Origin: Marsupella aquatica
Taxonomy: Eukaryota; Plantae; Marchantiophyta
Assembly (NCBI GenBank): GCA_973895155.1
Contig: OZ316891.1
Span: 23,249,899-23,313,898, forward strand
Direction: 5' to 3'
DNA: 64,000 nt
Shown here: positions 12,841 through 51,789 of the stretch, in pieces
Layout: the number at the start of each line of letters is the position of its first letter
Position numbering within the stretch: the first letter of the stretch is position 1
The notes under the pieces: model-generated
Seen by the model: only the letters and a program-made list of their open reading frames with translations
Told to the model about the DNA's origin: nothing
Databases searched by the model: none
Made by a program: the position numbers and the translations under genes

Positions 12841-14039
12841 AAGACTTAGGGAGGATAGGTGATGGATACTTACTAGGGATTCGTGATTGAAATTGTCTGG
12901 AGTCTTTGAGTACCAGTTCTACACTGTTGCTCATAAAGGAGAGGTCAAACTCCTCTGTTTCTTCCACGTAGGACTTCACAAGGACGCGATTTGCTTCCAT
13001 CTTTCTAACACATGGCAGCATGACATGTGGCATCTTAGCAAGCATCCGATCTAGGGCAAAAAAAAGAATGGAGGTGGAGGCGGAAGGCGGAGGCAGGCGG
13101 AGGGGTGGAGGCGGAGAGAGAGCGGAGAGAGAGCAGAGAGCAGAGAGAGAGCAGAGAGCGAGAGGAGAGCGAGAGAGCGAGGAGGAGAGCGAGAGAGCAA
13201 GGAGTCTCGGAGTGAGAGAATGAGAATGAGGTCCTGGCTGGACCTCTCCGTCCCTTTACCCCCTCCTGCCTCACCCCGGCCTGCGTACGGCCGGTTGCCT
13301 CCTTCTCCTGCATACGGCCTGCTCCTGCGTACGGCCCGTTGCCCTCACCTTGCATACGGACCTCCTTTCTTGATGTTCTGCCTACCTAACAGCCTTGCAT
13401 GGTAGTCCCCGTGCAATTAGGCTCATGAAGATAAGGAGTGTCCGCAAGCTAGGGTGAACGCCTACTCAACCCTTATCTTCATGCAATTTCCGGTTGAGCC
13501 GACTCAAGCGAAGGGTATAATTTGGGAGACGCCCATTTTGGAGCTCATTCTTGTTCTAGTTTCCCAAATCTAAGCTCCATGTAATCCGGAGTTTCTCTTA
13601 ATGTGTTATGTATTGAGCCACTTACCTTCAATGGGTCAGCTTAGCCAGCTTCTTGACTTTTGGAGTCCTCTCAGTTTATCTTTTACAGACATGTGTGGTT
13701 TAGGGTTCAGTTTGTTTTTTACTCCCAAGATTTAGTGGCATATAGCTTGTATTTCAAAGGTTTTGGGAAGTTTTTACCAATCTACAAACAACAATGTATA
13801 CCCCTTGGATGTGATATTCATCTTCTACCAGATCTTAATACTAAGGTGAGTATAAGGTTAATGCATTCAAATATAAGGTTCCATTATTTCATGAAACTGT
13901 ATGCAGACATTAGGGTCTGCCTTAAGACCACGCAAACTTTAGGCTACACCATATAGGGAGATCCGTAAAATACGGAGTCTTCATAAATTTGGATTTTTCT
14001 TAGCTTAAGATGTTTGAAGTTTATCTCCCATTACATCAT

Positions 14040-15150
14040 GGATTGGTCTAGGATGGTCCTAGTCCAAGTTTGGATTCAGATGGTCCTAGTCCAAGTTTGG
14101 ATTAGGATCATCCGAGTCCAACTTTGCATTGGGATCATCCGAGTCCAACTTTGGATTGGGATCATCCGAGTCCAAGTTTGAACTTGGATGGTCCAAGTCC
14201 TAGTTTGGATTGGGATGGTCCGAGTCCAACTTTGGATTAGGATGGTCCGAGTCCAAGTTTGGATTCTCGTTTGGATTGGGATCATCTGAGTCCAAGTTTG
14301 AACTTGGATGGTCCGAGTCCAAGTTTGGATTGGGATGGTCCGAGTCCAAGTTTGGACTTGGATGGTCCCAATCCAAGTTTGGATTGAGATGGCCCAAGTC
14401 CTAGTTCGGATTGGGTTGACCCAAGTCCTAGTTTGGATTGGGATGGCCCGAGTCCTAGTTTGGATTGGGTTGGCCCGAGTCCTAGTTTGGATTGGAATGG
14501 TCCGAGTCCTAGTTTGGATTGGGATGGTCCAATTCCAACTTTGGACTGGGATGGTCCCAGTCCAAATCCAAAATTGAAGGATCGTAGTCCAAATCCAGAC
14601 TCAAAGGATTGCAATCCAAATCCGAACTTGGATGGTCCTGGTCCAAATCCGGACTCGGATGGTCCCAGTCCAAATCCAGACTTGGAGGATCGTAGTCCAA
14701 ATCCAGACTCAGAGGATTGCAGTCCAAATCCGGACTTGGATGGTCCCAGTCCAAATCCGGACTCGGATGGTCCCAGTCCAAATCCGGACTCGGATGGTCC
14801 TAGTCCAAATCCAGAATCGAAGGATCGTAGTCCAAATCCAGAATCGAAGGATTGCAGTCCAAATCCGGACTTGGATGGTCCCGGTCCAAATCCGGACTTG
14901 GATGGTCCTAGTCCAAATCTAGAATCGGAGGATCGTAGTCCAAATCCAGACTCGGAGGATTGTAGTCCAAATCCGGACTTGGATGGTCCCGTTCCAAATC
15001 CGGACTCGGATGGTCCCAGTCCAAATCCAGAATCGAAGGATCGTAGTCCAAATCCAGACCCGGAGGATTGCAGTCCAAATCCGGACTTGGATGGTCCCGG
15101 TCCAAATCCGGACTCGGATGGTCCTAGTCCAAATCCTGAATTGGAGGATA
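14040..15150. repeat. 27-bp palindromic minisatellite (about 40 units, two subtypes, higher-order structure in second half)
   Basis: Units such as ttggattgggatggtccgagtccaagt, then ccggactcggatggtcccagtccaaat; copy with perfect arms ttggactgggatggtcccagtccaa at 14541-14565. Confidence 0.95.
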
Positions 15151-15222
15151 GTAGTCTGAATCAAAATTTGCATGAGTTTGGTTTTAATCCATTTTTTCAG
15201 TGTGCAGGATAATAGGAAAAGG

Positions 15223-17106
15223 ATGTCTCAAAGGTTTTCTAGGGGCGATGATGTGACCTTGACAATGGATGGTTACAACGTTGGAAATGGGACAGTTCAA
15301 AAGACAGATCCACGAGAGAGTGTTCAAAATATTGTGCTGGGAGAGAATCAAATTGGGGTCATCGAGAAGGCCTTTGGTGAGACCAGGAAGCTCCCTTTTC
15401 CAATGCCTAGGGCGGAAAATCTTCATGATGCCATTGACTCATGTGTCATTTGGGATATGTCATGTGCATATCGATCTACAAATAAGATTACTCAAAAACG
15501 CATCAGTATTGGTAGTTGTTCGACTCAAAAAGATAACAACATCCATAATGTTGCAAATGTAGAGGAGAATGCTCCGACCAACCTAAGGCCAGGCGATGAG
15601 GTTGAAATGTTTGGTGTTCGCCAAACAAGACTGTGAAACAAAATTTGCCTTGTCCTTTTGCTTCTTAGAGGAAAATTTGTTGCTCCCATCGATATCAACA
15701 TTCCATACTTTAATGTGGACGTCAACCACATCCCATAGAACCCAGGAGCCCTTTGCCTCTTCAATTGTTGCAGCTCCACCATGTGCGTAAGGTAAAGTCT
15801 TACTACCATGAATCACATCTGTGATTTTTACACTAACCCGAGACTCACCGAGTAATATGTTATGACATCTCTCCATTGGATCGATCTTGAAAACAACTCC
15901 AAAGGCCACACAATGGCCAGAGATCACGGACACTAAGTGTGACTATTTTCATCGGGAAAACTGGATGTCAGAGTTGGTTGAACTCTACACTGGTTTGGAT
16001 CAAACCAAAATGGTTGCCACTGGAACGATCACTGTCCCTCAAGTGACGACAGCAGTTGATGATAAAATTCTTGGTGATGACCATGTTGGGATTGCTGTGA
16101 AAGATGTCGTGGCAGCACAATACTTTCCCAACATCCACAAGGGAGTAGTGAGTTTGATTTGATGGCGGATTGATTCAACAAAACTAGTTGCAAATGGAAA
16201 AATTTTGTCAGACATTTTGGTGGAAGGTTCTGAGAGGATGGACTCAATGGATAGGGATGAACTCAATGCGGATGTAAGTGACAGAGGAGTACTGCGTTCA
16301 AGGCCGTACAATTTTAACAAGAGGAATCAAGTAGATCCGAATGAAAAGAAGAGGAGGTTGTTGGAAACCAAGGCAATTTCAAAAACAACAAAGGCGTCAA
16401 TTGATGACGTGAAAAGAGAAAATTGTTGCAAGCAAAAATGTTGTCTCATTATGCCAAGGGAACACATCGAAGATATTAGGATGGAATTTCATGGGATGTC
16501 AAGTGAGTCAAAAACGTTACACATTTTCAACCTCTTTCACTATAGAGAGGATGATGTTTGTGATAAGGGACACCATGTTCTTAAGGGTATGGTCGTATGC
16601 AGACATGCATTGCAATTATCCACGGTTTTAGCCACACCAAATATTATGATTACAAAAGGAGATATGTGGAGGGTTGCAAAATTGGGTTCCATGGCAATAC
16701 GGGCTTGATGAAAACAAGGGCAAATACTTTGCATGCACGAGCTTTGTTGGAGGTTTTTTTGACTTGAAATGCAGAGCCCATGCCTCATATGCCTTATGGA
16801 GGGGCACATGGGACAGACTCTATTGAGTACCGTCTTCCGGCGTGTTACAAGAAGCTAGAGATTCTGGAAGATGTGAGAACAAAGATGAAGGAAGAAGGGC
16901 TTCCTCCTGTCACAGAGAATACTCTCTACAAGATCTGGAGCAACTCATTTGCAAACTTCAGTTTTCATAAAGATGGTGCATTTGCCAAGTGTACTCTTTG
17001 TTGTGAATACAAAGACAGTTTGATGCGAGAAAGAAGGAAAAAAGAACGTGCTGAAATTGAAGAAAAGCGAGCGCAACATCTTCGTGAGCAAATGTCACAT
17101 AGATAT
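15223..17106 (+). pseudogene. Transposase gene of element A: three Tnp1/En-Spm-like (DUF8039-type) small domains, then the N-terminal part of a Sola/DUF7869-like transposase; resumes 21842-21888 then truncated
   Basis: Three repeats of VAxGxV...LG...V...W; then CCKQKCC, VVCRHA, HGN, FAKCTLC, HLREQMSHRY|VYYAHQ across the 4.7-kb insertion. Confidence 0.6.
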
Positions 17107-20100
17107 TGTGGTGCTTCCCATGGCTCCCCAAACCCAAGAAACCCCCCGCACAAGCCGATTCCCGCAGGTTTCGTGCTCGGCGAGGCCATTTCCGCGGTTT
17201 AGCGGCATGGGATGCTACTAACTTCCTACTACTACTATTAACATTTTACACACATATACTGGATAGATTCTTCATCAGGTCATGAGATATGCAGTTGGCC
17301 TAATCTAGACCTTCTCTTGTCTTTCCCTCCTGTTGGTCAGGTATATTTGGATTCTGCCGCCGGAATGATCCCCAATTGGTTTGGTTAAGCCACTAAGACC
17401 TCTCTCAGCTCGACACATCCAACTCTCACTCCCTTGCTTACTTCCCTTCTACTTGTTGGTGTGGGCACTCTTCACACAAGTTAATGCGACACACAAATAG
17501 CAAAATGACTCCTTCTGACTGAGTTATACCATGCACTTGCAATACAAATAGTACATCTCATACACAAACTCTGCGAACTAAGCCGTGAGGCCAACTCTAT
17601 TCAGTTCTTAGGTATGAGGAAACATGAATATACACAAGAGTCACTGTATAACTAACCAAGAGCTTCTCTTACTACTTGATCCCAGCCCTGCTGGTGCAAC
17701 TAAAAACTTGCTAAAGAAGAGGCCCTAAACTCCCCGTAGCCCAAGTACTTATCCTGGTCGTGGATCCGCCTGATTCCTTGCAGCGTAAGCCTAATCTACC
17801 TACTGTAATCTACCTGACTGTAATCTACCTATGTACAGCGAGGCAGGAGCACAAGTGTTGCCCTCACCCGTGGATCCAAAATCCCACTAATCTAAATGTC
17901 AGGGCCGTCTCCTGGTCCTGATCCTAAGTCCAAACTTGGAGATTAGCGCCCGCCCTGCTCACTCACGCCTCCTACCTCCACGTCCGCCTTCCCTAAAAGG
18001 GACGGCGCCCTTACACCGTCACGACACCGGTGGCTGGTTCTCAATGGACGCCCCCAACGCTTCCTCCGCAGCCACTATCATTGGTCCATCTTCTGACAGA
18101 TTACCTGCCCTTGACCGAGTCAACTCTTCATTGGCCTGACTGGGTCCACCCTTGGCTTCGGCCTCAGCATTGGTCACGGCCTCCGATACGACTACGGCCT
18201 CCCCGACATGTTCTAGTGGAGGATCCGGTACATCAACATCATTACTGGTTCTCCCGACCTCAGCCTTGCCATCTCCACTTCCTAGGACTGGTGGATCCAT
18301 CGCCGTGCCGATGCCGAAGATTGGTGTCGGGTTTATCTTCTCGGTCACAACGGCTTGAGAAGCCGTATAACTCCCAGACCTAGAAGGTTTCTGCTTCTTC
18401 TTCTTCCCTATTTCGACAGCCGGTTCCTTCCCTTTGCCACTTACCTTTGGCACCGGGGTGAGTGTTTCGGCTTGTCCTGCGGCCAATACTACCCTTGGTA
18501 ACTGGGTTCCCCCAATTGGAGTTGGATCTGATGAAGCCAAGCATTTAAATACTGCGGCTTGTGTCTTCAGCCGCTCCGTTTGGTTGTCGGCCCGCCGCTG
18601 TAGGTTCTCCATCTTCCTTGTGATTTCCTCCAACTCCTCATGGGTCTCGTCCAGGTCCTTGCACGCCTCCTCCAGCTCCTTGTTGGCTTCCTCCAATTCT
18701 TTCTTTAAGGTGGCCCTCTCCTCCTGGGTTGCTCTTAGCTCCTTGTCGAGCTCTGCTACAACCACAGACTCCATCTTATTCATCTTGGCATAAGTCTGGT
18801 CGAGCTGGTCGTCCTTTTCATGTAGGTGAGCCTTGAAGCTGGCCGTTAGGGATGCAAGCTCCTGCTACAGCGCAATAATCCCTTGATAGGATTTCCCTAA
18901 CTCTGCTTCCTTCTGCTCAAGGGCTCCACGGATATCTTTGAGCTCTCCTTTCAACGCCCTCTCCCTTCTCTGGTTCTTTGCCATTGCCCGATTGTTGGTT
19001 GCTAAGTGGGCCTCCTCTGCATCCCTTAGCTCTCGCTTCCATTTCTCTCTTTCTTTGACTGCGCCGGCCAACTCTCCTTGGGTCCAAGTCAGTTTATCTT
19101 TGATAATCTGATTGTCAGACTGAGCGGTATCCAACTGCCCATGCATGATGTTTAGCTCATGCCGCTTAATCCGTAGCTCATCTTGGGCTTTCTTGGCCAC
19201 CTGCAGGACTTCCACCTTGGCTTCCTTCTCCCTAAGCCGTCGGATGACCTCGTCCTTCTTGCTTCTCTCCAAAGCCACCGCTTCTTCTAATTGATGCTTT
19301 TCCAACATCTCCCTCTAGAAAAAGGGTCCCTGCTCCAACTCCTCCCCAAAGATGCTGAGTGCCAGGTCCCCACACATCTCCCCGTACTCCATGGCTCTAT
19401 CCTTAGCATAGGTGGAGTAACTAGAAGTCATCGGCATCAACCATCGCGGCCTCCGCTCCCAAGCCGCCTTGCGGATTTCTTCAATGGTGGCAAGAGGGTT
19501 GCTTCTTTTTTCGGCAAGCCGCCTGATGTCCTCCGGCCAATCTCCTCCTGGTAAATCATTCTCCTTAGCCAAGGCTGCTTTTTCTTCCTCCCTAAGTCGC
19601 TCCTGAAATTCTTGTGCCGTCTGCTTTATGCCGTCAAAGCTTGGGGGAGCAATCTCTGGTGGGGAGACTCGGGGCTACTCTGCTGGGTGGGGTCCCCTCA
19701 AACTACTCTTGGAAGCGTAGGGATAAATTGGCCACAGGTCCTTACTCCTTGAACATGATGATCCGACCCATAGCCAGAGTTATCATTGCTGTAGTCCTCC
19801 ACCGCCTCCTCCACTATTGGGACTCCCGGCTTCTCCCTTTGTTCCCCTGGTCCAGTCGTGAAAATGGCCTCTAGTTCCTCTGGTTTCTAGGCTGTCGTCT
19901 CCCTCTGCTCTGCGCGGGAAGGAGCCTTAGGCTGCTCTCCCTCTGATTCGGGGCTTGAGGCTCCCACATACATTCGCACTCCCGGCTTGTGTTCTGGCCT
20001 CCTGGTCTCCTTGGCTCCGGTAAAGGGATCTTCCTTTCTGAGTTGGCTTAGGCCGACCTCTGGGGCAGCGTCCTATATCGGTGCCGTTGCCAGAACCGTT

Positions 20101-21836
20101 GCCGTTGCCGGAACCGTTCTCTTTTCCTTCTCCAGCAATTTCAGCAGATTTTGCATGCCTGGTTGCTGCATCGGCAAGTCTTCTTTCCTTGTCCTAAACA
20201 CCTGCTCGATCGTCAGACTGTCAGGCTGGTTGGGCTTCTCTGGTGCCAGCCCTTGCTCCGGAACCTCCTCCGGTGCCCTTGCCAATAGGGGAAGTACTGG
20301 GGCAAAGATTTGACTTCTGGCATACTGGCACAACAGCGGCATGTGATAGCCAAGCCGGGACACGCTTCCTACGCCGATCACCTGTTGTTCCTCCTTCAAG
20401 ATCTTCTTCAGTTGGTTGAGGAGGTACCCGTTGTAATCCCGGCTTGGGTGTGGCCTTTTTGCTAGGTAGACCTGAGCCTTGCCGATCTCTGCCCTCGGCA
20501 AGTTACAGTGCATGGTGACCCGCAAGAAATCGATCATCTCTCCGATGTGCGGGTTGGTGCAAGTGTTCCGGAAGAAGCCATTCTTTGTTGATGGTCATGG
20601 GAACGACCAGAACTCCTTGTCAGGTAAGGTCTTCCTGGTATCAACCTTGGTCTTATTACCCATCGGCAAGCCAAACACCTCAGCAATCACCCGGGGAGTG
20701 AGATAGAAATCCTTCCCATACACCCTCGTGGAATTGGTCTCGGGTTCCCATGATCCCACGAATTCTAATAAGTCTAAGTCCGGCACCTCCGGCTTCAGCC
20801 ATGGTAATCTTACAAAGGCTTCCAAGCCGGATCCGGCCATGAAGCCTTGGTACTTCTTGGTCTGCATGGCCGTAAAACATGCATCCTCCTCCTGTGCAAA
20901 GTGTAATTGCACTTCCTCCGGTAGGGTTGCCGCCCAGCCTTTCCAGATGTCATCGTTTGTTGGAATGGCCTTGATGGGATCAACCTCTTCCTCTTTGGCG
21001 TCTCCCCTTGTCCTGCTCTGCTGCTCTATTGGCTTCCTAGGTACCGTCGATCTCGTTCTTTTTGCCGGGGTGGCCTCTTCGTTGTTGTTTCCTTTCCTCT
21101 TCATCTCGGCTGCCGTGGATGTTTCTCCTAGCAAGGTTGCCTTCGTCCACCCCCTTTGTGTTACCTTTCAACTCCCAGTGTAAGTCATTGCAGCGATTGA
21201 TGGCTTCCCGGATGCCGACGATTCTGTTTTCGCAAAACAGAAGGTCATCGAGCTGATTGGCAGTAGGAGTCCACAAGAACTCGGCCTTGATAAGTTCTCC
21301 TCCTAAGAAAGCCGTCTTCTGCAGTTCCCAGAGCCAAGCAAGCTCCTGCCGTTCTCAAGCTGCTCTCTCCAATTCTTTGTCCTCATAAGTCCTGACGTAC
21401 TCACCTGCCCGTTTGAACAGGCATCCCCAAAAATGTGCCGCTTGATTGACGTTGCTCATAGCCTCCTTGAGTCGATCGTTGGTATCTGTTCCCACCTCGA
21501 GTGCTTGCCTAAGCAACTGACAACATTTGTCCTCCCGTAGTCGTCTGCCCAGTTTGTTCTTGCAAATGAGCCACTATTCCTTGTGAGCGGTCCTTACCCC
21601 TCTCCTCCTCTGGTCTTCCCTCCCGTTGGTCACCCTTAGCCGCCGACGCTTAGCGCGCCCTAACCCTAATTGTGTTCTCTCCCCCAACGTCCTTACTTCC
21701 GGCCTCGGCCCGGGTTCCATAGTCACCCTTAATTGTTTATAATTTCCTTGTTTTTGTTCCTATACTAAGGTGTTTCCAGGGTACACTCTTGCTTTACCAT
21801 GTAAACCGGGCTAGTGATTCCTGGCTAGGCATCACA
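17107..21836. mobile_element. 4.73-kb TG...CA element with 5-bp TSD (solo-LTR-like)
   Basis: Starts TGTGGTGC, ends GCATCACA, flanked by GATAT/GATAT; removal restores the transposase frame; no gag/pol or terminal direct repeats seen. Confidence 0.85.
18019..21134 (-). pseudogene. Retroelement accessory ORF (Athila ORF1/Transposase_32-like N-terminus plus long coiled coil), broken by stops
   Basis: LLEFVGSW...VYGKDFYLTPRVIAEVFGLP; E/K/L-rich heptads in ORFs 18019-18783 and 18865-19308. Confidence 0.6.
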
Positions 21837-21889: not shown

Positions 21890-23145
21890 GGCCCTTTATG
21901 ACCAATCACCCAATAACACGATGACGGACCAAACGAGAAGTGTGACGCCTAATGGAGAAGGGTGTTTTCAATTTTGATTGATTTTCGCCAATTTTCACAA
22001 TGTGCCCAACACATTTCTCGCAAAATCAAAGATTTTTGCAAAACCAACTAATTCATATCGTTCCCAACTTTGCAAGGAATGATGGCTTCATCCCAAATTG
22101 TGAATTTCAATATCCTCACTAACTTCAAATATTTTCATTGCGACAATAGAACCCATAAATATTTCCATTTTGGTTAGATTTTGAAAATAGAAATTTTGGT
22201 TACAAGGAAAATAGATCAAGAAAACAAAACTATTCTGATACCGGTATCGCTCCTCGAATTCCATTCAAATTTGTTTGCCGTTTCTTTCATAAAACGAAGG
22301 TTTTGAAATATTTACCACATTCTAATATTTTTTTACATCAAAGTTCACCACACAGTCAGCTGAAGTTACCTCACAGTGCACCACGTAGTATGCAAAATTC
22401 CATTGTCAACGTTGAAACAAGAATACAAATGGCAATGTCCATTTGTAATTGTTCCGGACTCATTTCTTAGTCCTTCCTCTAGCAAACCGGTGTCGCTCTT
22501 CCTCCCGGTTCACCTGTAATCCTCACTCAAATACAGTCCGCGATACTGGTATCGCTCTTCCTCCTTGACCACCTATAAACACCACTCCAATACAGACCGC
22601 GATACTGGTATCGCTCTTCCTCCTTGACCAACTGTAAACACCACTCCAATACAGACCGCGATACCGGTATCTCTCTTCCTCCTTGACCACTTGTAAACAC
22701 CACTCCAATACAGACCACGATACCGGTATCTCTCTTCCTCCTTGACCACCTGTAAACATCACTCCAATAGAGACCATGATACCGGTATAGCTTTTTCTCC
22801 CGACAACCTTGAATACCAATCCAATAAACATAACAATACCGGTATTTGTCGTCCTCTAGGATCACATTAACCATGGGTTAAGTTTCGTAGTCAACCACGC
22901 AGTTTATGCAATTTACCGCCTCAAGTGGATTTTTTTAACTGTTTGGTTGCGCAATGCAAAGAGCGATCCGCGTATCGCTCTTCACTTTCAAGACTCCAAA
23001 ACAAACGATATTCTCACTCATGGGCGTTTTGTATCGGAGATTTCTTTACTTAGCTGCGATTTTGCGATCGGGCAAAACGAGAAGGGTGGTCACACTTCTT
23101 GTTTGGTCCATCACTGTGTTCAATGATGGAGATGAATAAATGACC
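21890..23145. mobile_element. Non-autonomous element bounded by degenerate inverted repeats, with internal 59-bp tandem array
   Basis: About 21915-21947 (aacacgatgacggaccaaacgagaagtgtgac) is inverted at about 23088-23120; no convincing TSD. Confidence 0.6.
22480..22860. repeat. 59-bp tandem repeat (about 6 units) containing palindrome GCGATACCGGTATCGC
   Basis: Palindrome variants at 22540, 22599, 22658, 22717, 22776, 22833; isolated copy at 22237. Confidence 0.92.
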
Positions 23146-23606: not shown

Positions 23607-26600
23607 TCATTGAGAATCCTCTGATTCCAAATCATCTGAGGAATTACTAGGATCGCTACTCGACTCCCTATCAGTCTCCTTAGCCGAATTGTCAACATAC
23701 TGTGCTACAGTCCCAGCCTCATCATCTATGAACTGAGGGCAGTAAAGGGCTTTCCGAACACCCCTCACTAACCGCAGACCTTTCCCCTCCCAAGTCAAAA
23801 TGATGGGCGCTTCATCAACCTCCTTTGCAGTCTTTTCAGCATAGCATGGAAGCGCAAATCCCTTCTCCCGGGCCCTTCTCAGGGGTCACAAGAAAATGAT
23901 CCTCGATTTCTTTCCGAAGGCGGAATCTCTCCTCCGAAACCAATCCGAACGCCTATCACTGAAGAAATCACCAGAATTGGATCAATACTACACATCCAAA
24001 AATTCTCCAAACAAAAGAAAAACACCAAATAGGGAGTTCTACATCAAAGGCCAAGTGCTTTACTCCAGGTTGAATTTATCCTTCTCGTCTGAAGGTCCTC
24101 CCTGATCATCTCCTGGGATGGTGAACTCATCATCCAACCCTTCATCATTGGGATCATCATTTTTCGGGTCTACGGCCCCTTTCAACTTTTGGGCATGTCT
24201 ATCCAACACATTTGCCAAAGTTTTTTGCGCACACAGATGAAGAATGTCTCGATCTTCAACACCCACAACAAATCTCCCAGCGTATTCCCCAGCGGCAAAA
24301 GCACTTCCATCTCCAACAATCCAGTCAATGACAATGTCCTTTGGCAAAGTAAGGATCTCCATTACGGCTTGCATGAACCCAACTGACAATCTATTGGAAC
24401 CTGCAAAAGCCGCCTTGGGATTGGGATCAGTTTTTGGGTAGCAAACACTCAACATCGATTTATGGTGGGCATCCTCCGAGGAAGTCATTGGAACATATCC
24501 TGTATGTTTCGGGACTTTTGCCAAGAATTCCACCTTGCAAAAGACATCCATAATGAGAGTAACCACCTGAATTGAAAACGAGAATATGTAAGAAATGGGA
24601 ACTTTTGGTTAGCGAGCTCGCTAGCAAAAATTGCACGAAAATATTGAGGATATCTTACCTCAATGTCCATATCTGCCTGATACAAAGGAGATGAAAGCAA
24701 AATCGAATATTGCCGGACATGTTTAAATTTGTTCTTCTGCTCGACGGCAATTTTTTTTGTCTCATATGGTTATAGTCAGAGCTATGAAGAACTGCAACAT
24801 AACCATTGTTGGCAAGCATCGGACACATGACTCCAAAGAAATAATATGGTAATTTCTCACTCCAAACATTCCACTTTGGGACCTCCCGGTCTGTGACGCT
24901 CGTTCGATGACCAGTGGGAAGGAATATGAAACCCAAGTGAGCACCAATTCCAGCGTAATGTTTTAGGGTGTTCATTGATCATCACGGCGTTTGGGTGTTC
25001 GCTCGATTTGTTCATTCCAGACAACCACTGATCCGCATCGCCCATCCAGGGAGGTCTTACTTTCCTCTGGCTAATTGAGTTTGCAGTTTCCGTGAGATTG
25101 CTCTTTGCCAAGAAATGCCTCTCACCGTCCTTCTCAAGACCACACATTTGTGCTACTCCTTGCGCGACGCATGCTTCCTCCTCATCCGAGTCGGAGAGAA
25201 TTTGGACATTGCGCTTCCTCTTTAAATGCTTGATTGAACCCAGGTCCACAGCAGATTTTGTTGTGACCTCAACATCAGGAGACTTGGGTTCTTCTCCATC
25301 ATTCGCCCCACTCTTCAAACTCCCAGAGGCTGCAGCCTTTCTCTTCTCTGAAAAACATGTTAATGTCAGACAGGTGACTGAGACAAAATTACTCCGAATG
25401 AGGTATGAAAAAAAGAGGAGAAAAAGACTTACTTTGCTTCCCAGACAAGACTGATCCATCCTTGGACGGGTCCTTCACCGGCACCTTCCAAGGTCTCCTC
25501 GATCTACTCCGGTCGACAATGGCAGCTACACCAAGAACAACTTTCTCTATTGCCTCACATCCACCAGCCTCGGCTTCTGCAGGAGCTAATTTGGACTCTG
25601 TAATGTACGACTCTGGTATCAAGCCTTGATTTATCATATGAAATGTTGCCTTCTCTGCTGTGTCAAATGTCACTGTCCATTTGTCTGATTCTAAATACCA
25701 TGGACAGTGAAGGACTTCCCACTCACTCATCTTCCTTGGAGCCTCCACTCCCTCACATGGGTACATTGAGTACTCTCCATATTTAACGGAGGTTGGATCC
25801 TCTTTCACTCCTACTATCCAAGGCGAGAAGCAAGCAGGATAGGACCACCAATATGTTTTGTCAACAACTTCTTTATCCACAAAAAAATGATACGTATATC
25901 TCTTCGCCCTCCTCCGAAAAAGTGAGATGTCAATCTTCTCACCCAACTTTGGTGGCCAAATCTGTCTGAAAAAATGAGATTTCACTCTCGTTTGGAAATC
26001 TTCAAAGTCCTCCTCTATGTCAAGGATCAGCGATGGCTTTGTCTTCTTAGAGGAAGTAAGGATCCTTGCATCTGGAATAGTTGGGATCATCTCTGAAATA
26101 ATCTCAGACATGAGCGAAGAACAAATTGACTCAACCTGCTCCCATACAGCCCATCGATGAAGCCAAAGTTTTGTTTCGCTGTCCAAGAATTGACCAGGGT
26201 GGAAGTACTTCTTGCGAAGCTCAAGTCTGCATTGTACCTCGAGGAGTACACATCTGAGCTGCGGAGTCAACGACAAGACACCCATAAATAGCCTCGCACG
26301 ATTGAGACCACATGACACATTACCCCTTCCTTTATCGTCTGTTCGTTGGGCCTCCTTCCTCTCATGTTCGCAGTAGTTGTGCATCTCAACACACTTCTGG
26401 AAAAAGTCACCAAACTCAGGATTCAGGATAGGTCCAATCTTTGGCACCTTCACATTCCAATCTGCTAGTTGCTCCTTCATCATGTCTTTCACTGCCATGT
26501 CTTGCGTAGCTTTTGAAAGAAGTTCTCCTTGCGCTTCTTTCAACTGGAACTTCTTCAAATCTTCCGTCTGTGCTGCAATATTAGCAGCAGACAGAATGTA

Positions 26601-27020
26601 CGTGCAAGCATCGAGTGTCATGTTCTTCGAATACCAAGCCGGTTTCCTGATATTTGCCATCTTCTACTGGAAAAGTTTGTAGTTGTCTGCATCAATGATA
26701 TCTTTGTATACAGAAAGGTCATTACTGAGCACCTTCTGGACTCTCTTTGCTTCAAGGACCCAAGAATTCTCAACGTGACATTGAGTCAACCTGAACAAAA
26801 GAAACAGGTCAGCGAGATCGCTAACAAGAGGAACTGAAAGAATTTTATATACAATTCAGAGCTTGAAGGAAAAGAAACAAACCTATTCAGCACATGCATC
26901 GCCGACTCAATCTGAACAAATGAGTTCTTGTCACCCTTGAAAATTCGGCAAACAACTCGAGGATGATATTTGACATCATGGGGATTCTCGTCCGCAAGCT
27001 GCATCCATGAGTACAGACAA
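23607..27020 (-). pseudogene. ParB-MTase-like gene (copy B), 5'-truncated; homologous to copy C
   Basis: YHPRVVCRIFKG, 423-aa helical middle ORF, GFIFLPTG...VPKWN, LSVGFMQAVMEILTLPKDIVIDWIVGDGSAFAAGEYAGRFVVGVE; introns at about 26882-26791, 25432-25348, 24658-24568 at the same positions as in C. Confidence 0.8.
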
Positions 27021-28768
27021 TCCTCACCCAGCCCGCTTCAATGCACCCTGTACACCTCTCAGTGGCGCTGCTAGTCCCATCATACACTCAGATTGCCTCA
27101 CACACACACACATCCATGAGAGAAATGAGGCCTGAGAGGAAAACTCAATTAGATTCAAAGATGTGCACAATAGTTCACTGAGAACACTTGATCAAAAAAT
27201 AGGCCCGAAGGCTGTCTCCTCCAGATTGCGACATGCTTGCCCTGCAAGCCCCGTGCTTGCCATGCAAGCTCAATCCTGAACCTGAGCCCGGCTCACTCCA
27301 GATTGCGACGGCAGATTGGACTCAAACCAATCCCGTACTTGCCTTGCAAACTCAATCCTGAACTCAACCTCCTTCACTGCACTTCATCCTCGGGGGCACG
27401 TACAGATCTCACACCTCCATTTCAGAATGTCAAGTATGCATGCACGGTTGACTCGACTTCAAAGCTGGTACCAGGCCTAACGGCGATCTACCCCAGACTG
27501 CAATGAGGCCTGGCCTCATGCTTGCCTTGCAAGCTCAGCTCTGGCCATAGATCCCTTAGTGCTCTCTACCAGACAAAGGCCGGGACTCCCCATGGATCAC
27601 GTAGCCTTGCCAGACTGAACTGTAAATGCTCCTCCTGCTGCCCCTCAAATAGTGTCTCAGCCTCCCTAATGTGCTCACCACAAATCAAATTGAAATCCTC
27701 CCCACAGTTTACAATCACCAATACATCACCTATCACCAAGGCTCTGTATCGGGGGAAAAGAACCCAGTTGTGCTGCCCACTAGAAAGAGCCACAATCCAG
27801 CTTGCAAACCTAGCAACCCGTTGCTGTGAAGCTTGGCTGATTACTCCCTGAGTAATAGCACCACCAAGCTCTCCCCAACACGCAGCGTCCAAGTCCAGCC
27901 TTGCTTGCACAGAGCTCCTCCCTGCTGCTCAGTCTACGTGAGATCACACAACTGGAGTTCCCCCCCCCCTTGCCTCTACCGGGGGTTGCTCTATATACTC
28001 TCTCATTGAGCCCAAATGGGTGGATGCTACGCTGTTGGAGCCCCATCCCAGCCCTAACAGAGCCGCCACTATCTCTAACTACTGAACCCTAACTCGCAGC
28101 TTTATTTCTATCTCAAATTGGCTATGTACTTTGGATTTGGCCCTCCTCCATGGTTTTTGCAAGCTTGCGCCTCCTCTCCTGATTTCTCTATTCAACCATT
28201 TGTTGCGTGGATAGCAGCGTTGGAAGCGGCTTGAGCTCCTCTTTCCAACGAGGTCAATTATAGCCGATTTGGTCAAATACACAGAGAGTTATGCCCCCGC
28301 AACCAAGAGAGGGTACTCACTGCTCCGCTAACCCGAGTTACATAGCTAACCCGAGTTCGGCTAACCTAGCTATCCTATCTAACCCAAGTAGAGCTAACCC
28401 GTGGTCTCGGGTTAGGCCGCTACCCGCTATCCGCTATCCGCTAACCTAGCCTAAGCTGAGCCCGAACCCGAGCTTACCTATGCTAACCTGAGCCCGAGTT
28501 TAGGCTAACCCGAGTTAAGTCTAACCCGAGATCAATCTAGTCCGAACCCGGGTTAAGCCTAAGCTGAAGCCGTGTTTACTGAGCTAAGCTGAAGCCGCGC
28601 TGACGTGAGCTAAGTTGAAGCTGTGCTGACCTGAGCTAAGCTGAAGCCGTGCTGACCTGAACTAAGCTGAAGCCGTGCTCACATAAGCTAAGCCGTGGTC
28701 GAGCTTGGGTTAACCCGAAACTGAAGCCGAATCCGCTAATTCCGGCCATAAGTTAACCCGTCACACTA
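27020..28768 (-). mobile_element. Truncated insertion with hAT-like end and AACCCG-rich and 26-bp subterminal repeats
   Basis: 28320-28760 is packed with gctaacccgag and gagctaagctgaagccgtgctgacct units; minus-strand end reads TAGTGTGACGGG; other end not found. Confidence 0.45.
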
Positions 28769-29044
28769 ATCAGGCCGTATCTTTCTTAATACCCCTCCGT
28801 TTCTCGAGTGTTTTATATCGATTTTACTCGCCTTGACCAGATCTTTCCAATGCTCTTTACAGATCCGGATTTGGTGATATATTGAAAGAGATATGGTCAT
28901 CGACCACCCGCGACATAGCTTTTATTTCCCTACTCTTAACGCCATGATTGCCCTTATTCTTGCCATCTTGCTAATTGTTATGCAATATCAATAGCTACTC
29001 CTTGCATACAGCAACCTACTTAATCAGATTACAAAATAAGGACC

Positions 29045-29914
29045 ATGTCATTGGCGTCACACTATAAACTGTGGGAAAGGCAGAGAACAGCACCAACATA
29101 TGTTCAGGCCTACCGTGTTGCTGACAAAATCCATCGTTGGTGGAAGGAAGGAAACTGCTATGCTGGGAAATTGAAGTCTCTCCAAGGATGGTTATCTTGG
29201 TGGGTCGTGAGGTGGAGGCAATGGGGGAACTTCATCCGCGTTGTAAGTGTCCAATTTCATTTCTATTTGACGTCATTGTTTTTGCTAGCGACCTTGCTAG
29301 CATATTAGGTCTGACTGGGGACAACTTTTTCGCAGACGCAAACCGCAATGGAGTCAGCCTTGATGCCAAATTGTACTGGAGCGGAATCAGTCCATGCATC
29401 CATGAGATCTTGCCAAATGAAGAAACTAGTGGGATTGATTGAAGCATGTGAGGTGGACCAGAATCGTGTTGCGGGGCAAATTGCTGCTTTTACTGCCTAC
29501 AGTGAAGGTGTTCATAGAGGCCAAGGGCCAACCATTTTCGAATTAGCATATAGGAACGCCGATGCTATGGGATCCATGGATGCTTACGAAAAGGCCGCAA
29601 ATCTTTTGCTTGAGTCTTCAGCTAAGTATGAATTCTATAGAACAGTTCCATTACATAGGGATCTCCAAACAACATCCACGAAGAGGAAAGGGAAAGCTTC
29701 AATTGTAATCCACAAGAATGACTCCCACAGACATGACAAGGTGTCACGCACAACAGCTTCTCCTTCAGGACTAAAAAGGCGTAATCTCTATCCTAAATTT
29801 TGCTTCGTTAATGTTTCGGAGACTTCTGCAGACCCAGAAATAGCAAATAATACAACTTCGGGAACCCCTGTCGGAGGTTGTTCTGCTGGAGTTATCCATA
29901 TCTCAGATGACAAT
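29045..29914 (+). pseudogene. Mutator-like transposase fragment (element B)
   Basis: GWLSWWVVRWRQWGNFI and PNCTGAESVHAS align with the element C transposase, with the same intron position; cut by the insertion at 29915. Confidence 0.8.
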
Positions 29915-32900
29915 TGTGGTGGTTCCCATGGCTCCCCAAACCCAACAAACCCCCCCGCACAAGCCGATTCCTGCAGGTTTCGTGCTCGGCGAGGCCGTTT
30001 CCGCGGCTTAGCGGCATGGGATGCTGCTAACCTCCTACTATACCTATTAACATTTTACACACATATACTGGATAGATCCTTCATCGGGTCATGAGATACG
30101 CAGTTGGCCTAATCTAGACCTTCTCTTGTCTTTCCCTCCTGTTGGTTAGGTATATTTGGATTCCGCCGTCGGAATGATCCCCAATTGGTTTGGTTAAGCC
30201 GCTAAGACCTCTCTCAGCTCGACACATCCAACTCTCACTCCCTTGCTTACTTCCCTTCTACTTGTTGATGTGGGCACTCTTCACACAAGTTAATGCGACA
30301 CACAAATAGCAAAATGACTCCTTCTGACTTAGTTATACCATGCACTTGCAATACAAACAGTACATCTCATACACAAGCTCTGCGAACTAAGCCGTGAGGC
30401 CAACTCTATTCAGTTCTTAGGTATGAGGAAACATGAATATACACAAGGGTCACTGTATAACTAACCGAGAGCTTCTCTTACTACTTTGATCCCAGCCCTG
30501 CTGGTGCAACTAAAAACTTGCTAAAGAAGAGGCCCTAAACTCCCCGTAGCCCAAGTACTTATCCTGGTCGTGGATCCGCCTGATTCCTTGCAGCGTAAGC
30601 CTAATCTACCTACTGTAATCTACCTGACTATAATCTACCTATGTACAGCGAGGCAGGAGCACAAGTGTTGCCCTCACCCGTGGATCCAAAATCCCACTAA
30701 TCTAAATGTCAGGGCCGTCTCCTAGTCCTGATCCTGATCCTAAGTCTAAACTTGGAGATCAGCGCCCGCCCTGCTCACTCACGCCTCCTACCTCCACGTC
30801 CGCCTTCCCTAAAAGGGACGGCGCCCTTACACCGTCATGACACCGGTGGCTGGTTCTCAATGGACGCCCCCAACGCTTCCTCCGTAGCCACTGTCGTTGG
30901 TCCATCTTCTGACAGATTACCTGCCCTTGACCGAGTCAACTCTTCATTGGCCTGACTGGGTCCACCCTTGGCTTCGGCCTCAGCATTGGTCACGGCCTCC
31001 GATACGACTACGGCCTCCCCGACATGTTCTAGTGGAGGATCCGGTACATCAACATCATTACTGGTTCTCCCGACCTCAGCCTTGCCATCTCCACTTCCTA
31101 GGACTGGTGGATCCATCGCCGTGCCGATGCCAAAGATTGGTGTCGGGTTTATCTTCTCGGTCACAACGGCTTGAGAAGCCGTATAACTCCCAGACCTAGA
31201 AGGTTTCTGCTTCTTCTTCTTCCCTATTTCGACAGCTGGTTCCTTCCCTTTGCCACTTACCTTCGGCACCGGGGTGAGTGTTTTGGCTTGTCCTACGGCC
31301 AATACTACCCTTGGTAACTGGGTTCCCCCAATTGGAGTTGGACCTGATGAAGCCAAGCATTTAAATACTGCGGCTTGTGTCTTCAGCCGCTCTGTTTGGT
31401 TGTCGGCCCGCCGCTATAGGTTCTCCATCTTCCTTGTGATTTCCTCCAACTCCTCCTGGGTCTCGTCCAGGTCCTTGCACGCCTCCTCCAGCTCCTTGTT
31501 GGCTTCCTCCAATTCTTTCTTTAAGGTAGCCCTCTCCTCCTGGGTTGCTCTTAGCTCCTTGTCGAGCTCTGCTACGACCACAGACTCCATCTTATTCATC
31601 TTGGCATAAGTTTGGTCGAGCTGGTTGTCCTTTTCATGCAGGTGAGCCTTGAAGCTGGCCGTTAGGGATGCAAGCTCCTGCTACAGCGCAATAATCCCTT
31701 GATAGGATTTCCCTAACTCTGCTTCCTTCTGCTCAAGGGCTCCACGGATATCTTTGAGCTCTCCTTTCAACGCCCTCTCCCTTCTCTGGTTCTCTACCAT
31801 TGCCCAATTGTTGGTTGCTAAGTGGGCCTCCTCTGCATCCCTTCGCTCCCGCTTCCATTTCTCTCTTTCTTTGACTGCGTCGGCCAACTCTCCTTGGGTC
31901 CGAGTCAGTTTATCTTTGATAATCTGATTGTCAGACTGAGCGGTATCCAACTGCCCCTGCATGATGTTTAGCTCATGCCGCTTAATCCGTAGCTCATCTT
32001 GGGCTTTCTTGGCCACCTACAGGACTTCCACCTTGGCTTCCTTCTCCCTAAGCCGCCGGATGACCTTGTCCTTCTTGCTTCTCTCCAAAGCCACCGCTTC
32101 TTCTAATCGGTGCTTTTCCAACATCTCCCTCTGGAAAAAGGGTCCCTGCTCCAACTCCTCCCCAAAGATGCTGAGCGCCAGGTCCCCACACATCTCCCCG
32201 TACTCCATGGCTCTACCCTTAGCATAGATGGAGTAACTAGAAGTCATCGGCATCAACCACCGCGGCCTTTGCTCCCAAGCCGCCTTGCGGATTTCTTCTA
32301 TGGTGGCAAGAGGGTTGCTTCTTTTTTTGGCAAGCCGCTTGATGTCCTCCGGCCAATCTCCTCCTGGTAAATCCTTCTCCCTAGCCAGGGCTGCTTTCTC
32401 TTCCTCCCTAAGTCGCTCCTGAAATTCTTGTGCCGTCTGCTTTATGCCGTCAAAGCTCGGGGGAGCAATCTCTGGTGGGGGAGACTCGGGGCTACTCTAT
32501 TGGGTGGGGTCCCCTCAAACTACTCTTGGAAGCGTGGGGATAAATCGGCCACAGGTCCTTACTCCTGGAACATGATGATCCGACCCATAGCTAGAGTTAT
32601 CATTGTTGTAGTCCTCCACCGCCTCCTCCACTACTTGGACTCCCGGCTTCTCCCTTTGTTCCCCTGGTCCAGTCGTGAAAATGGCCTCTGGTTCCTCTGG
32701 TTTCCAGGCTGTCGTCTCCCTTTGCTCTGCGCGGGAAGGAGCCTTAGGCTGCTCTGCCTCTGATTCGGGGCTTGAGGCTCCCACATACATTCACACTCCC
32801 GGCTTGTGTTCTGGCCTCCTTCTCTCCTTGGCTCCGATAAAGGGGTCTTCCCTTCTGAGTCAGCTTAGGCCGACCTTTGGGGGAGCGTCTTGTATCGGTG

Positions 32901-33327
32901 CCGTTGCCGTTGCCATTGCCGGAACTGTTGCCATTGCCGGAACCGTTCTCTTTTCCTTCAGCAATTTCAGCAGATTTTGCATGCCTGGTTGCTGCATCGG
33001 CAAGTCTTCTTTCCTTGTCCGAAACACCTACTCAATCATCGGACTGTCGGGCTGGTTGGGCTTCTCTGGTGCCGGCCCCTGCTCTGGAACCTCCTCCGGT
33101 GCCCTTGCCAATAGGGGAAGTACTGGGGCAAAGATTTGACTTTTGGCATACCGGCACAACAGCGGCATGTGATAGCCAAGCCGGGACACGCTTCCCACGC
33201 AGATCACCTGCTGTTCCTCCTTCAAGATCTTCTTCAGTTGGTTGAGGAGGTACCCGTTGTAATCCCTGCTTGGGTCTGGCCTTTCTGCCAGGTAGACCTG
33301 AGCCTTGCCGATCTCTGCCCTCGACAA
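29915..33327. mobile_element. Second, truncated copy of the TG...CA element
   Basis: Highly similar to 17107-about 20502, starts TGTGGTG; similarity stops abruptly near 33327. Confidence 0.92.
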
Positions 33328-34936
33328 GGCGCTACTCAAAATGAAAAAACGTAATCATACCAGTTAACAAAACTCAAGCCAAAATGATTTTTACTAAATT
33401 GAAAACATTGTGTATACACGTCGCTTCTACTAATGAAGCACAATACAAAATTCCAAAATGAGGAGCCTAAAGTCCACCTCCAGCAATTCAAAATTATTCA
33501 CCGGATCATAGATCGCATCAGCGAAACAAGTATCTCCGGGAGGCCCAAGAGCCTAACCACAAGTCTATTCAAAATGCCGGATCATAGAAAGACCCAAATC
33601 CGTCGTTGAGCCCTGCAAACTATAATCAACCTCACTCTAACGGAGCAATCCACGGTGAAAAAACCCATTCACAAGCCTAACCTAACCCCAAAATGAAGCA
33701 GCAAGTTCACCTCCTCCAATTCCAAACTACGAACCGGATGTGGTTCTCCTCCATGAAATGAGTAGCGCCTGGCGCTACCCAAGATCATGACCACGATGAT
33801 CCTAGGATGATCCCGGATCAAACGAAGACTCACATTCGTCGATGAGCCCTGCCTTCTTGTGTTTTGGCTTCTGTCAAAAGCCAAATGTTCGAGTTGCAAC
33901 GTACCGTGCACTTGGAAGCCTTCGCAAAGGGTGCGATGAAGACTCAGGAAGGTTTGTATCATAGAAATTGATACGACCAAGAAATTCAGCAGACTGAATT
34001 TCCACATCCCAGAAGACATTCGATGGAGGATGTTCGGGAGTTGGATAATGAATTGAGAATCTCTACTGAAATGGCCTCGGAGGAGAATCAGGAAGCCAAG
34101 GAATGTTCCGTTCACCCGGGCTCATACCCTCGTCCACAGGCAGTTGGAGACGATTCCTTATGTCGGAAGTCTCGGTCAGGCGACTTTCGGTGTCTGCAAT
34201 CGATGTCGATGACCCAAAGTTGACCGTCTGATCGGTCTACTCCTCCGATGCTGGCACTTTCCTTTGGGGCCGCACAACGTTATCGACATTGAAACCAGGA
34301 CGCTCCATATCGTCCATCGATGGTTACTTTGATCGGGTTACTCAACGCATGTAGCGCAAGAAACAACCTTCAAGCGCAGAGTATACTTTCCAAACCGCAA
34401 GAGCACAATGTGAACAGCTTCGTATGGAGGGATTACTCGAATGTATGCCCCCTCAAAGTATCTCCGTTTTTTTGATTCAACGGACATACGACCAAACCAA
34501 CTCATGAGAATGGACCGACGGGGAATATTTCCCCAACGGGTGCTAACGTTCATTAATTTATGAACTTAACCGACAAAACTTCAACGGTAATACTACTTCC
34601 GGAAGGCATATTATTGGCTAACGCCTGGCGCTATCAAAAACAAAGTCATTTCCAAATCTTTTTCGTTCCTTGAAAATTCTGAAAGTTTAGGGTTATTTGG
34701 TTAACTCCAGGCGCTATACAAATACGAGTCACCCAGAGCATGTCCCACAAATATTCTGAATTCAATTTTTGCAATAGTCTCTGGCATGAAGCTAGGCGCT
34801 AAAGTGAAATATTGAACTTTCATATTTCTCCAAGCTCACTTGAGAACATAATATACCAACTTGACTACAAATATTTGTTCACGTCTGAACATTTATATAC
34901 GATGGAATTGATACAAATGGGGTTCTCATAACTGAT

Positions 34937-37900
34937 CTACTCAGATGACTCTGTCTCACTACTATCGGATCTATTGGTCGACTCCGCCTCGTCGTTCACA
35001 AACTCACTCCGGCACATGTCATCCACGAATTTGTTCACCAAAAACTTCCTATCAGAACCTCTTCTAAGTCTCAGACCTTTTGTTTCCCAAGATAATGTCT
35101 GAGCCCTCTCTACTTTTTGGGCGGCTTTCTCAGCATAGGATGGGAGAATAAATGGTTTTTCTGGTGTAACCTCCATAGCTTCAGCGATCGTTTTCCGGAG
35201 TTCAAACCTTCTCCGCGTATTCCACTCCGACCTGAAAGTTTCATCCATATTAAAACAAACACTAAGTTTACCAAAAATATGTTGCTAAAAACAGTCGTAC
35301 ATTTGGAGTGAGCTTACGAGCATTACTCAGAAGACTCCTCATCCTCGGAATCACTTTTTGATCTCGAGGGATTTCTTTTCTCTGCCTCGTCGTCTCCTAG
35401 ATTGACAACTGGAATCTCTTCTTCATCAGATTCCCTAGCAACATCCGGCTCGCTCTCTTCGGAATCAAAGTTCAAAATTGATCGTACTCTGTCCAACTTC
35501 TCTTTCCCTTTCCTTGACAATCTCTTCTCTGGAGTCAAAGCTGACTTTGGCTCCAAAAGGTCAGCTAAGGTAAACGTTGAAGCCGTGACAAACTCTGTTC
35601 GCCCTTCCACCCCAACAACAAATCTACCACAATAGTCTCCCGCCACGAATGAACTTCTTGAGCAACAAGTCCAGTCGATCACAATATCCCCTAGACAAGA
35701 GATGATCTCTATAACAGACTGCATAAAACCAACTGTGAGCCTCCCGTTTCCACAAGCCACAAGTTCTGGTATTGGATCCAACTTTAAAGATGGAAATCCG
35801 ATCAGATTTGTAATTGAAGGATCTTCGGAAGGCAACAATGGACGGAACTTGGGATCTTTCGGTATTGTTGATTTTCGCAAAACCCGACAGAATATATCCA
35901 ACCGCAGCGTGAAGATCTACAAAACAATAGAATAGTAAGACCATGAAACAAAAAGACACAGATTAGCGCCTGGCGCTGGCCAAAATTAAAGAGATACAAG
36001 ATTAGCGCCTGGCGCTGGCCAAAATGAATGACATTAATTACTTGAGTGTCAGACTTAGGTTTGTACATAGGAAACCCCATGACAACTGTATACGATGCAA
36101 TACAGTCAAACTTTTGCGACTGCTAGCATGCAGATATCACTTCCAAAATCTGGTCATATTCTCCAGTGTGAAGAATAGCCAGAACTCCGTCGTCCGATAG
36201 GAAAGGGTCCATTGCGCTAAAGAAAGCCCCAGGGAGAGAGTGGTCTTGCACATTCCATTTCGGGACTTTCTTGTCCAAAAGTGATGGCCTCAATCCGGTA
36301 GGCAAATACAGAAATCCTGCATCCACACCAAATGTCCTAACTTTTCCACCTCTAATAACCCCCTTTGATCGAGAACCCGACTTCACAAGATTCTTTCCCC
36401 AGGTTTCTACCTGAGAAACCCAAGATGGCTTCTCTTCCTTTTGAAACACACTATCGTAGAACTCTGCCAAGGTAGACTCCACGAATGTGTGCCTGGTTTT
36501 ATTTCCCTTGAAGTCCCCCACATTCCTCTGTAAACCAGTCGCCGCAAGCGTTTCCCTATGAGACCCACCGGAAGTAGAAACGTGACATTTCTTCTTCTTC
36601 CTAGTGCTGGTGGCATCCACTGGCGGAGCACTCACATCTTTCGGGGTCTCCGACCCCTCTGGTCGATCCTCATCCTTCCCAAGACTGTTGTCACGAGAAG
36701 GCTCCGGAGTTGCAGTCAAAGCATTACCCGACACCAACCCCGCATCTGATTTCCGAGATCCTGCTAGAGAAATTGTTGTATTAATAACAGCTCCTGGCGC
36801 TAGCAATATAGAAGACTGAAAATTACGAAGATTTGAAGCTACCAAATTAGGAACTCACTTTTTTGGTCTCTTTTTTAGATCCACTTGGGGTTGTTTCTTG
36901 CTTGGGTTTTGCTCTTGGTTTTCGACTCCTTGCAACTTGGACGACTTGCGTCTCACAAATCCGTTGGAGCTCTATCGCCGAGAGATCAATCTTGGCATCA
37001 ATTCCCTGCTTCATCTTTGACAAAATGTTTCTGGGCTCCAAATTCTTTGATAACTTGTGAAAAGCATCTTTCTCTATCTCATCAAATGGTGAATTCCACT
37101 TGTCTGTGTCAAGATACCACAGACAATGCACAACCTCCCACTTTGCCATTTTCCTTGGGGGAAATTTTCCCTCCGGTGGGTACATGGTGTACCCAAGAAA
37201 GTCTCCAGACACTTCGGACCTCATATTCACAACGGCCCATTTCTGGAAGGCACCAGGATAAGCCCAGAAATAGCCCGGGTCACTCCTCTCCATTTTCACA
37301 TAGTATCGATACAAATATCTCTTGGCTCTCTTGCGGTTAACTTCACTCAAATCCTCCTTGTCAGCGTACTTGGACTCCCAAATAGTGTTGAAAAACTTGG
37401 CCCTTACGGAATCCCCATACTTTCTAAAATCATCTACAATCAAAGCCTTCAACTTCTCAAAGGGAATCAGTTCTCCACCGAGTGTTGTAAGACGTTGTTC
37501 GGTGCATGAACCCATAGCCTCCTTCAAACATGCCTCGAGGAGAGCAGTTGCCATCCCCTCAATTGTGTTCCAAACATGCCAGGTGTGGCACCACTACTTC
37601 ACGGGGTCGTCCGATACTCCGAGCGGATGGAAAAACTGTTTCCTTAACTCGGGAGTACAATGTGCAACAAGCAATGTACTTTGCAATTTTGGATCTAATG
37701 CCAAATTGGCAGTGAACAAGCGAGCTCTATCCATGGTGCAGAATACAGCTTCAGGTACCTTTTCACGTTTGAGTCGATCTGTAAGACAATACATCTCAGC
37801 ACAAGTGTCCATGAAATCTTCAAACTCTGGGCTCAGCAAGGAAGTGAGCTTTGGAGTTTTCACAATCCACTCCTTAGTGGCTTCCTTCATCATCTGACTG

Positions 37901-49479: not shown

Positions 49480-51789
<2,310 letters not shown>

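Follow-up and report, generated by a model that had tools for sequence, protein, structure and literature searches.

Family-specific palindromes in two putative Mutator-like elements of the liverwort Marsupella aquatica, and a proposed element-encoded reader

Family-specific pairs of regulator and DNA motif have already been described for the Arabidopsis VANDAL and Spm transposons. In the passages cited here, VANC motifs lie in both genes, between them and downstream (PMC5735166). The bacterial proteins ParB and Noc recognise palindromes that are related to each other, each binding as a twofold dimer, and their specificity has been switched, according to the cited part of PMC7383237. Beta-class methylases linked to ParB occur in phages as well as in certain algae and fungi, and the passages cited make no mention of the element described below (PMC4738411). 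Marchantia DN4MT1 is an active host enzyme with the sequence TSPPY in the cited section of its report (10.1101/2021.02.12.428880).

Two elements, termed B and C, were analysed in a window of 64 kb, which is the whole stretch of Marsupella aquatica DNA under study. An earlier note on this DNA had proposed that palindromes in matching introns of B and C share their arms and differ in their cores. The pattern is real and is stronger than first described; the mechanism offered for it below is a proposal made from sequence. No description of such an element was found in listings of the open literature, and the supplement of PMC4738411 may list these proteins.

Layout and decay of the two elements

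The window consists of repeat-rich plant DNA. B and C are probably decayed copies of a Mutator-like transposon, the term Mutator-like being taken from a lead in the Atlas. Each has a transposase gene placed head-to-head with a second gene, the cargo gene, and stops or frameshifts are present in both copies. Introns were predicted from sequence. The features of the two elements are as follows.

23607-27028, minus strand: cargo gene B, truncated at the 5′ end
26883-27028: end of the ParB-like exon of cargo gene B
25433-26790: helical exon 2 of cargo gene B, with one in-frame stop
24659-25347: exon 3 of cargo gene B, frameshifted
to about 24060: methylase-like exon 4 of cargo gene B
23607-23885: last exon of cargo gene B
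27030-29060, ends approximate: higher-copy insertion that replaces the shared promoter of B and the 5′ parts of both genes
29054 to about 29800, plus strand: transposase remnant, which no contig bridges to gene B
34937-39041, minus strand: cargo gene C, pseudogenised, with predicted ParB/Srx-fold exon 1 (38332-39041), helical exon 2 and methylase-like exons 3-4
about 40130-43444, plus strand: transposase C, 5′ end approximate

Gene B had been called a diverged homologue of gene C with matching introns, and this is borne out. Exon 2 is 36% identical between the two, and introns 1 and 3 interrupt the same codon in the same phase (26791-26882 and 24567-24658 in B; 38204-38331 and 35917-36041 in C). 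Intron 2 occupies roughly the same position in both genes, and the reading frame of C breaks there.

The insertion at 27030-29060 has a summed depth about 10-fold higher in sequencing runs X1 and X2 and about 2- to 6-fold higher in X3 and X5, and its edge is marked by loose ends at 29060/29061. The transposase remnant next to it likely belongs to element B, given its C-like head-to-head layout and a depth like that of B. All four runs (X1, X2, X3 and X5, from three studies at most) show B as a multicopy family. No terminal inverted repeats were found for element C, whose ends were probably cut by other elements.

The closest relatives of the genes are metagenome fragments, and the named relatives are from liverworts. 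Seven of the ten cargo relatives looked up are Riccia sorocarpa proteins, and Calypogeia fissa has one transposase match and one match to the ParB exon.

The 3′ flank of B holds an inserted 1.2-kb element with 32-nt terminal inverted repeats (21915-23120), and a loose end at 23121 corresponds to the empty site. Its 59-bp tandem array (22486-22826) carries the palindrome AGCGAT-N6-ATCGCT, with four of the six matches in the window inside the element. A third, far-diverged cargo-like gene (8337-11912) shows, by eye, SGQHS instead of DGNHR and has a weak N6_N4_Mtase match; it has no TAGCG palindromes, and a 79-bp tandem array is found at 10483-10872. CACTA-type ends with Transposase_21 and DUF4218 genes are seen at 43977-52935 and to 57398, in two copies on opposite strands. 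A cluster of the word TCGCAAA at 43998-44464 resembles the TnpA motif CCVTCGCAAA given in the cited part of 10.64898/2026.08.24.746577. Transposase C carries a 297-bp insert (41958-42253) that matches 6285-6579 at 93%, adjoining an NIF-phosphatase-like open reading frame (6509-7252). A 27-bp satellite at 12645-15160 has higher-order periods of 54, 81 and 108.

Palindromes of the element families

The B motif is TAGCG-AGNT-CGCTA, 14 bp in length, with the oriented cores AGCT, AGAT and AGGT. The C motif TAGCGCCWGGCGCTA, or TAGCG-CCWGG-CGCTA, is 15 bp in length and has 17 matches with up to 3 mismatches, nine of them exact, where 0.43 are expected. The sites are distributed as follows.

24610-24623: B-type palindrome TAGCGAGCTCGCTA, exact, in cargo intron 3 (24567-24658)
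26810-26823: B-type palindrome CAGCGAGATCGCTA, 2 mismatches, core AGAT, in cargo intron 1 (26791-26882)
29286-29299: third B-type palindrome TAGCGACCTTGCTA, 2 mismatches, in transposase intron 29243-29335
38228; 36788; 35964 and 36003: C-type palindromes in cargo introns 1, 2 and 3
39452-39979: six C-type palindromes clustered between the two divergent genes
41430-41594: 69-bp tandem repeat bearing three C-type palindromes, in transposase intron 41413-41629
33763, 34619 and 34702 (span 33763-34716): C-type palindromes 3′ of the cargo gene
43590: C-type palindrome 3′ of the transposase

The two B sites in the cargo introns are where the earlier note placed them, and its description of the same arms with a different core and spacing (14 bp versus 15 bp) is correct, the core of B being better written AG-N-T. 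Its assignment of C palindromes to introns 1 and 3 was right as to presence and too narrow in extent: both intron-3 copies carry 1 mismatch, and intron 2 holds a 2-mismatch copy as well, where B intron 2 has none. The statement that only two copies are visible in B must be given up in view of the site at 29286. This third site is in an intron homologous to the C transposase intron (41413-41629) that is home to three C-type copies.

Chance is a poor explanation for the imperfect B sites. None of 5000 dinucleotide shuffles of its intron gave a match with 2 or fewer mismatches in the case of the 26810 site, and one of 5000 was as good in the case of the 29286 site. The motif scan found no site in B intron 2 (best match 7 mismatches) or in four flank stretches of B, the 3′ flank included (best 5-7 mismatches). 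B is thus much sparser in sites than C across comparable parts, the corresponding places in C being occupied. The scarcity had been attributed to loss of the B promoter. The insertion at 27030-29060 supports the loss, and the loss leaves the siteless intron 2 and 3′ flank unexplained.

In C, all 16 sites within 34500-43800 are outside the approximate exons, which cover about 70% of that span. Arm sites number 19 in the 64-kb window: three in B, all with spacer 4; 15 in C, 14 of these with spacer 5 and one with spacer 3; and one elsewhere. It should be pointed out that a host transcription factor could bind the sites, with the families having drifted between factors or spacings, and the cluster between the divergent genes (39452-39979) is promoter-like. 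Against a host factor, just one of the 19 arm sites is outside B and C, and a one-base change in spacing would better suit a private protein that changes together with its site. We regard a host factor as very improbable.

A 3.4-kb duplicate (17105-20502 and 29913-33328) is present at 96% identity. Its right end adjoins GCGCTA, just six bases that may be one half of a C motif severed at the junction.

Other copies of B bear on the intron-1 site. The same two deviations from the motif are found in these copies, and therefore the deviations are the family norm and not decay; the notion that the site is a decayed perfect palindrome was ruled out on this ground. The site varies at one of 14 positions, versus eight of 78 elsewhere in the intron together with 2 indels (Fisher p = 1.0), and its conservation is not measurably above that of its own intron. 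In each of three runs, three contigs part from the B sequence a short way inside intron 1. Only one of these runs has a loose-end consensus long enough to cover the site, and there the left arm is broken; in another run, a single contig has the first T of the site restored. For intron 3, each of two runs has one diverged contig whose alignment is confined to 24602-24630 and leaves out the intron on either side, a weak match of 29 letters, since joints with sides shorter than 30 letters are unreliable.

A third family, L001, is represented by one 2-kb metagenome contig without the cargo gene, the only true locus among the 89 stretches that a transposase-alignment scan of metagenomes matched. 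Its homologous transposase intron has three copies of TAGCG-CCGG-CGCTA (0, 1 and 1 mismatches). The TAGCG/CGCTA arms had been foretold before L001 came to light. Three arm sites are present in its 317-nt intron, a number reached in none of 3000 shuffles, and the remaining 1761 nt of the contig have no arm sites. The sites have symmetrical flanks of the TATTGC/GCAATA type. In B, C and L001, the donor of the transposase intron comes after the same WGN-x-I-x-x codon.

When nine introns are compared with the three motifs, the result is block-diagonal. Eight of the introns come within 0-2 mismatches of the motif of their own family and stay at least 4 mismatches away from either of the others; B intron 2, the remaining one, fits none of the three. 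C and L001 share the half-site TAGCGCC with spacing that differs by one base, and B and L001 have spacing in common with a different core. The arms are therefore conserved, and the core and spacing are family-specific, in three families, the third of which is a single outside contig. The divergence of the palindrome by family, as claimed in the earlier note, is now seen in the third B site, in L001 and in the matrix of introns and motifs. The introns of B and C are otherwise unalignable, as had also been said: with the motifs removed, the real score was equalled or exceeded by 136, 91, 155 and 314 of 500 shuffles in the four pairs.

The transposases of B, C and L001 are equidistant, with 93 of 173 residues identical in each pair, and thus no co-phylogeny can be read from them. 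The cargo diverges faster than the transposase (36% versus 54% identity).

In L001, positions 1172-1231 form a 60-nt near-perfect inverted repeat with 29-bp arms, centred on a palindrome. This repeat suggests fold-back copying as a route by which sites are multiplied.

Perhaps the palindromes act in RNA, as hairpins or as carriers of branch points that aid splicing or processing, with the core as the loop. The 26810 site shares letters with a predicted branch point (CTGAC) that lies 19 nt from the 3′ splice site, and four of 13 intronic sites overlap CTRAY. Each of the 13 intronic sites can form a short hairpin (-3.1 to -13.8 kcal/mol, flanks included), the long inverted repeat of L001 is centred on one of its sites, and a hairpin would predict a conserved stem with a free loop. 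The loop, however, is nearly fixed within a family and is itself palindromic. In addition, nine of the 13 intronic sites have no CTRAY overlap, the 3′ splice site is anywhere between 19 and 271 nt away, 10 of the 17 C sites are outside the four introns examined, and Rfam gave no match in 21500-44500. A role in RNA is improbable.

The palindrome might also spread neutrally, copying itself by slippage, fold-back or gene conversion and binding nothing of importance. Tandem duplications of 69 bp (41430-41594) and of 39 bp (C intron 3) do carry some of the copies, the flanks of sites are often extended inverted repeats, and the conservation of the B intron-1 site does not exceed background. However, the arms persist in three families that have otherwise unalignable introns, the family core is shared by dispersed single copies whose flanks are unrelated, and exons are avoided. 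Neutral spread is likewise improbable.

Candidate proteins and a proposed mechanism

The N-terminus of the cargo protein gives a model with pLDDT 87.6, and its best PDB matches in Foldseek are ParB-CDP (prob 1.00, E 0.033), ParB, sulfiredoxin, Noc and KorB. A ParB/sulfiredoxin fold is thus predicted, with a best E value of 0.033 that is above 0.001. The sequence DGNHRL, in which the GxxR motif is present, has each residue at least 90% conserved in 24 sequences and is a predicted nucleotide-binding motif. Weak matches to ParB and to phage methylase PHROGs were found for the cargo. The Atlas clusters nearest to the ParB-like exon of C (38334-39041) are those of fungal DUF3723 (0.94-0.95), and ParB_N clusters are look-alikes also. 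DUF3723 is a Starship cargo. No paper combining DUF3723 and ParB was found in the literature search.

The model of exon 2 (pLDDT 90.8) is helical, with a best structural match of Z 5.6 and rmsd 11.5. Queried whole, at 452 residues, exon 2 gave no clear match to a known fold in the PDB, BFVD or a wide search, which does not imply a new fold, and neither a helix-turn-helix nor any other DNA-binding fold could be recognised in it.

The C-terminus resembles N6_N4_Mtase (PF01555). Riccia relatives match at E 9e-6 and 5e-5, falling slightly short of the gathering score, and B exon 4 at E 0.048. Motif IV precedes motif I. The catalytic (D/S)PPY is absent and is replaced by DLPT, DMPS or DMPT in the five Riccia relatives that match the pattern, by YLPT in C and by FLPT in B. 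As motif IV is altered, the methylase-like domain is likely inactive. Active methylation of the palindrome cores was considered and set aside, on the grounds that most short palindromes are restriction-modification sites and that the catalytic motif is altered; we take the cores CCWGG, CCGG and AGCT to be such sites. VANC domains are DUF287/DUF1985, and no VANC Pfam family was found in the exons of the window or in eight cargo homologues, which have N6_N4_Mtase instead.

A profile of exon 2 gave 136 matches among representatives at 50% identity, many of them fragments. These sequences point to a cargo family with many branches or families. In a quick cargo tree, B and C fall into separate subclades, a placement that has no starred support. 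Exon 2 was found in none of 2944 candidate longer proteins, pattern searches gave no cargo relative in viral, metagenome or genome contigs and no transposase in viral or genome contigs, and PDB sequence searches gave nothing useful.

The transposase has no Pfam match. Its Atlas matches are to MULE / ZSWIM RNase-H-like clusters (0.86-0.91, with 117-149 shared features), to be read as a lead only, and by eye it has ES-x-H and a SWIM-type C/H motif near the end. The homologue P0190, also without a Pfam match, has a Cys/His-rich N-terminus, which may be GCM/WRKY-like.

Conserved arms in unalignable introns argue for selection. That core and spacing have shifted in concert across every site of a family suggests a reader that changes with the element. 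The twofold sites suggest a dimer. From sequence, the palindromes are probably functional binding sites, as the earlier note inferred. The reading favoured here, tentatively and with slightly less than an even chance, is that the family-specific 14-15 bp non-coding palindromes are likely bound by a dimer of the cargo protein, and that by this means each family would recognise its own copies and likely shield them from silencing. The cargo is the better candidate for the binder in view of the switching of specificity in the ParB family, the internal position of the sites and a divergence faster than that of the transposase. A cargo dimer would dock on the twofold palindrome and may spread along the element via the ParB domain. 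A change in the protein and a change in the site would be fixed together, and local duplication would then multiply the new site. The purpose, by analogy with VANC, would likely be to shield copies of the element from host silencing.

The transposase is an equally available candidate. Its N-terminal zinc domain might bind the sites, as a family-specific activator or an aid to synapsis, while the cargo does something else. L001 carries the motif with the transposase alone in view, and the N-terminus of P0190 would suit such a role. In the cited part of one report, the AtMu1 transposase activates cognate copies in a sequence-specific manner and the Spm TnpA motifs mirror the Spm phylogeny (10.64898/2026.08.24.746577). 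However, AtMu1 and TnpA are described there as binding termini, and the sites here are internal, intronic and intergenic; terminal repeats were not found for C, though its ends are probably cut. Binding by the transposase is considered unlikely.

Binding by the cargo dimer can be carried further, to a parS-like self-recognition in a radiation of bryophyte MULEs. A ParB-fold switch joined to a dead methylase would load, slide and keep the element unsilenced, with families retuning core and spacing. This extended version is doubtful. If true, it would be a case of a ParB clamp working on eukaryotic chromatin. The element points to an independent solution to self-recognition in early land plants, made from parts of prokaryotic type. 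As sites differ by one spacing base or by one base per half-site, and the cargo has many branches, co-evolution can be tested by a binding matrix. If the ParB domain spreads, short motifs would give coverage of a whole element, and the families an orthogonal set of DNA-targeting modules.

Comparison with described systems

The cargo C-terminus is like the beta-class N4/N6 methylases, as these appear in the cited passages (PMC4738411; 10.1101/2021.02.12.428880), in its PF01555-like sequence, motif IV before motif I, and liverwort relatives. In contrast with DN4MT1 as given in the part cited (10.1101/2021.02.12.428880), it has an altered motif IV, is likely inactive, and is fused behind ParB inside a transposon. 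The passages on enzymes of phage ParB-terminase loci (PMC4738411) differ also, in that here a methylase-like domain follows ParB within a transposon. The cargo lacks the catalytic motif of a methylase, and the ParB fold is predicted for it.

The predicted ParB/Srx nucleotide-binding fold, and related palindromes of similar length that differ between families, recall the ParB-parS and Noc-NBS systems as described in the cited part of PMC7383237. Unlike bacterial ParB and Noc, the protein is encoded by an intron-bearing eukaryotic transposon, with no known partition role and no helix-turn-helix found in exon 2 as queried whole.

An element-encoded protein with clusters of family-specific motifs that track element families is a property held in common with Spm TnpA and AtMu1, going by the passages cited (10.64898/2026.08.24.746577). 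Those proteins, in the same passages, bind termini and are transposase-derived, whereas the sites here are internal and the candidate binder has a predicted ParB and methylase architecture.

The likeness to VANDAL/VANC, as the cited passages describe that system (PMC5735166), lies in an element of Mutator type (putative here) with an accessory gene and short family-specific motifs in non-coding DNA, introns included, multiplied through tandem duplication. The sites studied here are likewise spread over both genes, the stretch between them and the downstream flanks. The VANC motifs of those passages are 8-9 bp in length, non-palindromic and in one orientation (YAGTATTAY, AGTTGTCC), and not 14-15 bp palindromes with shared arms as here (PMC5735166). 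Unlike VANDAL, the element has a cargo with predicted ParB-like and methylase-like domains and no VANC Pfam family. With an unrelated accessory protein and palindromic motifs, the element is therefore not a member of VANDAL/VANC or of Spm/TnpA, but it would work like the motif systems of both.
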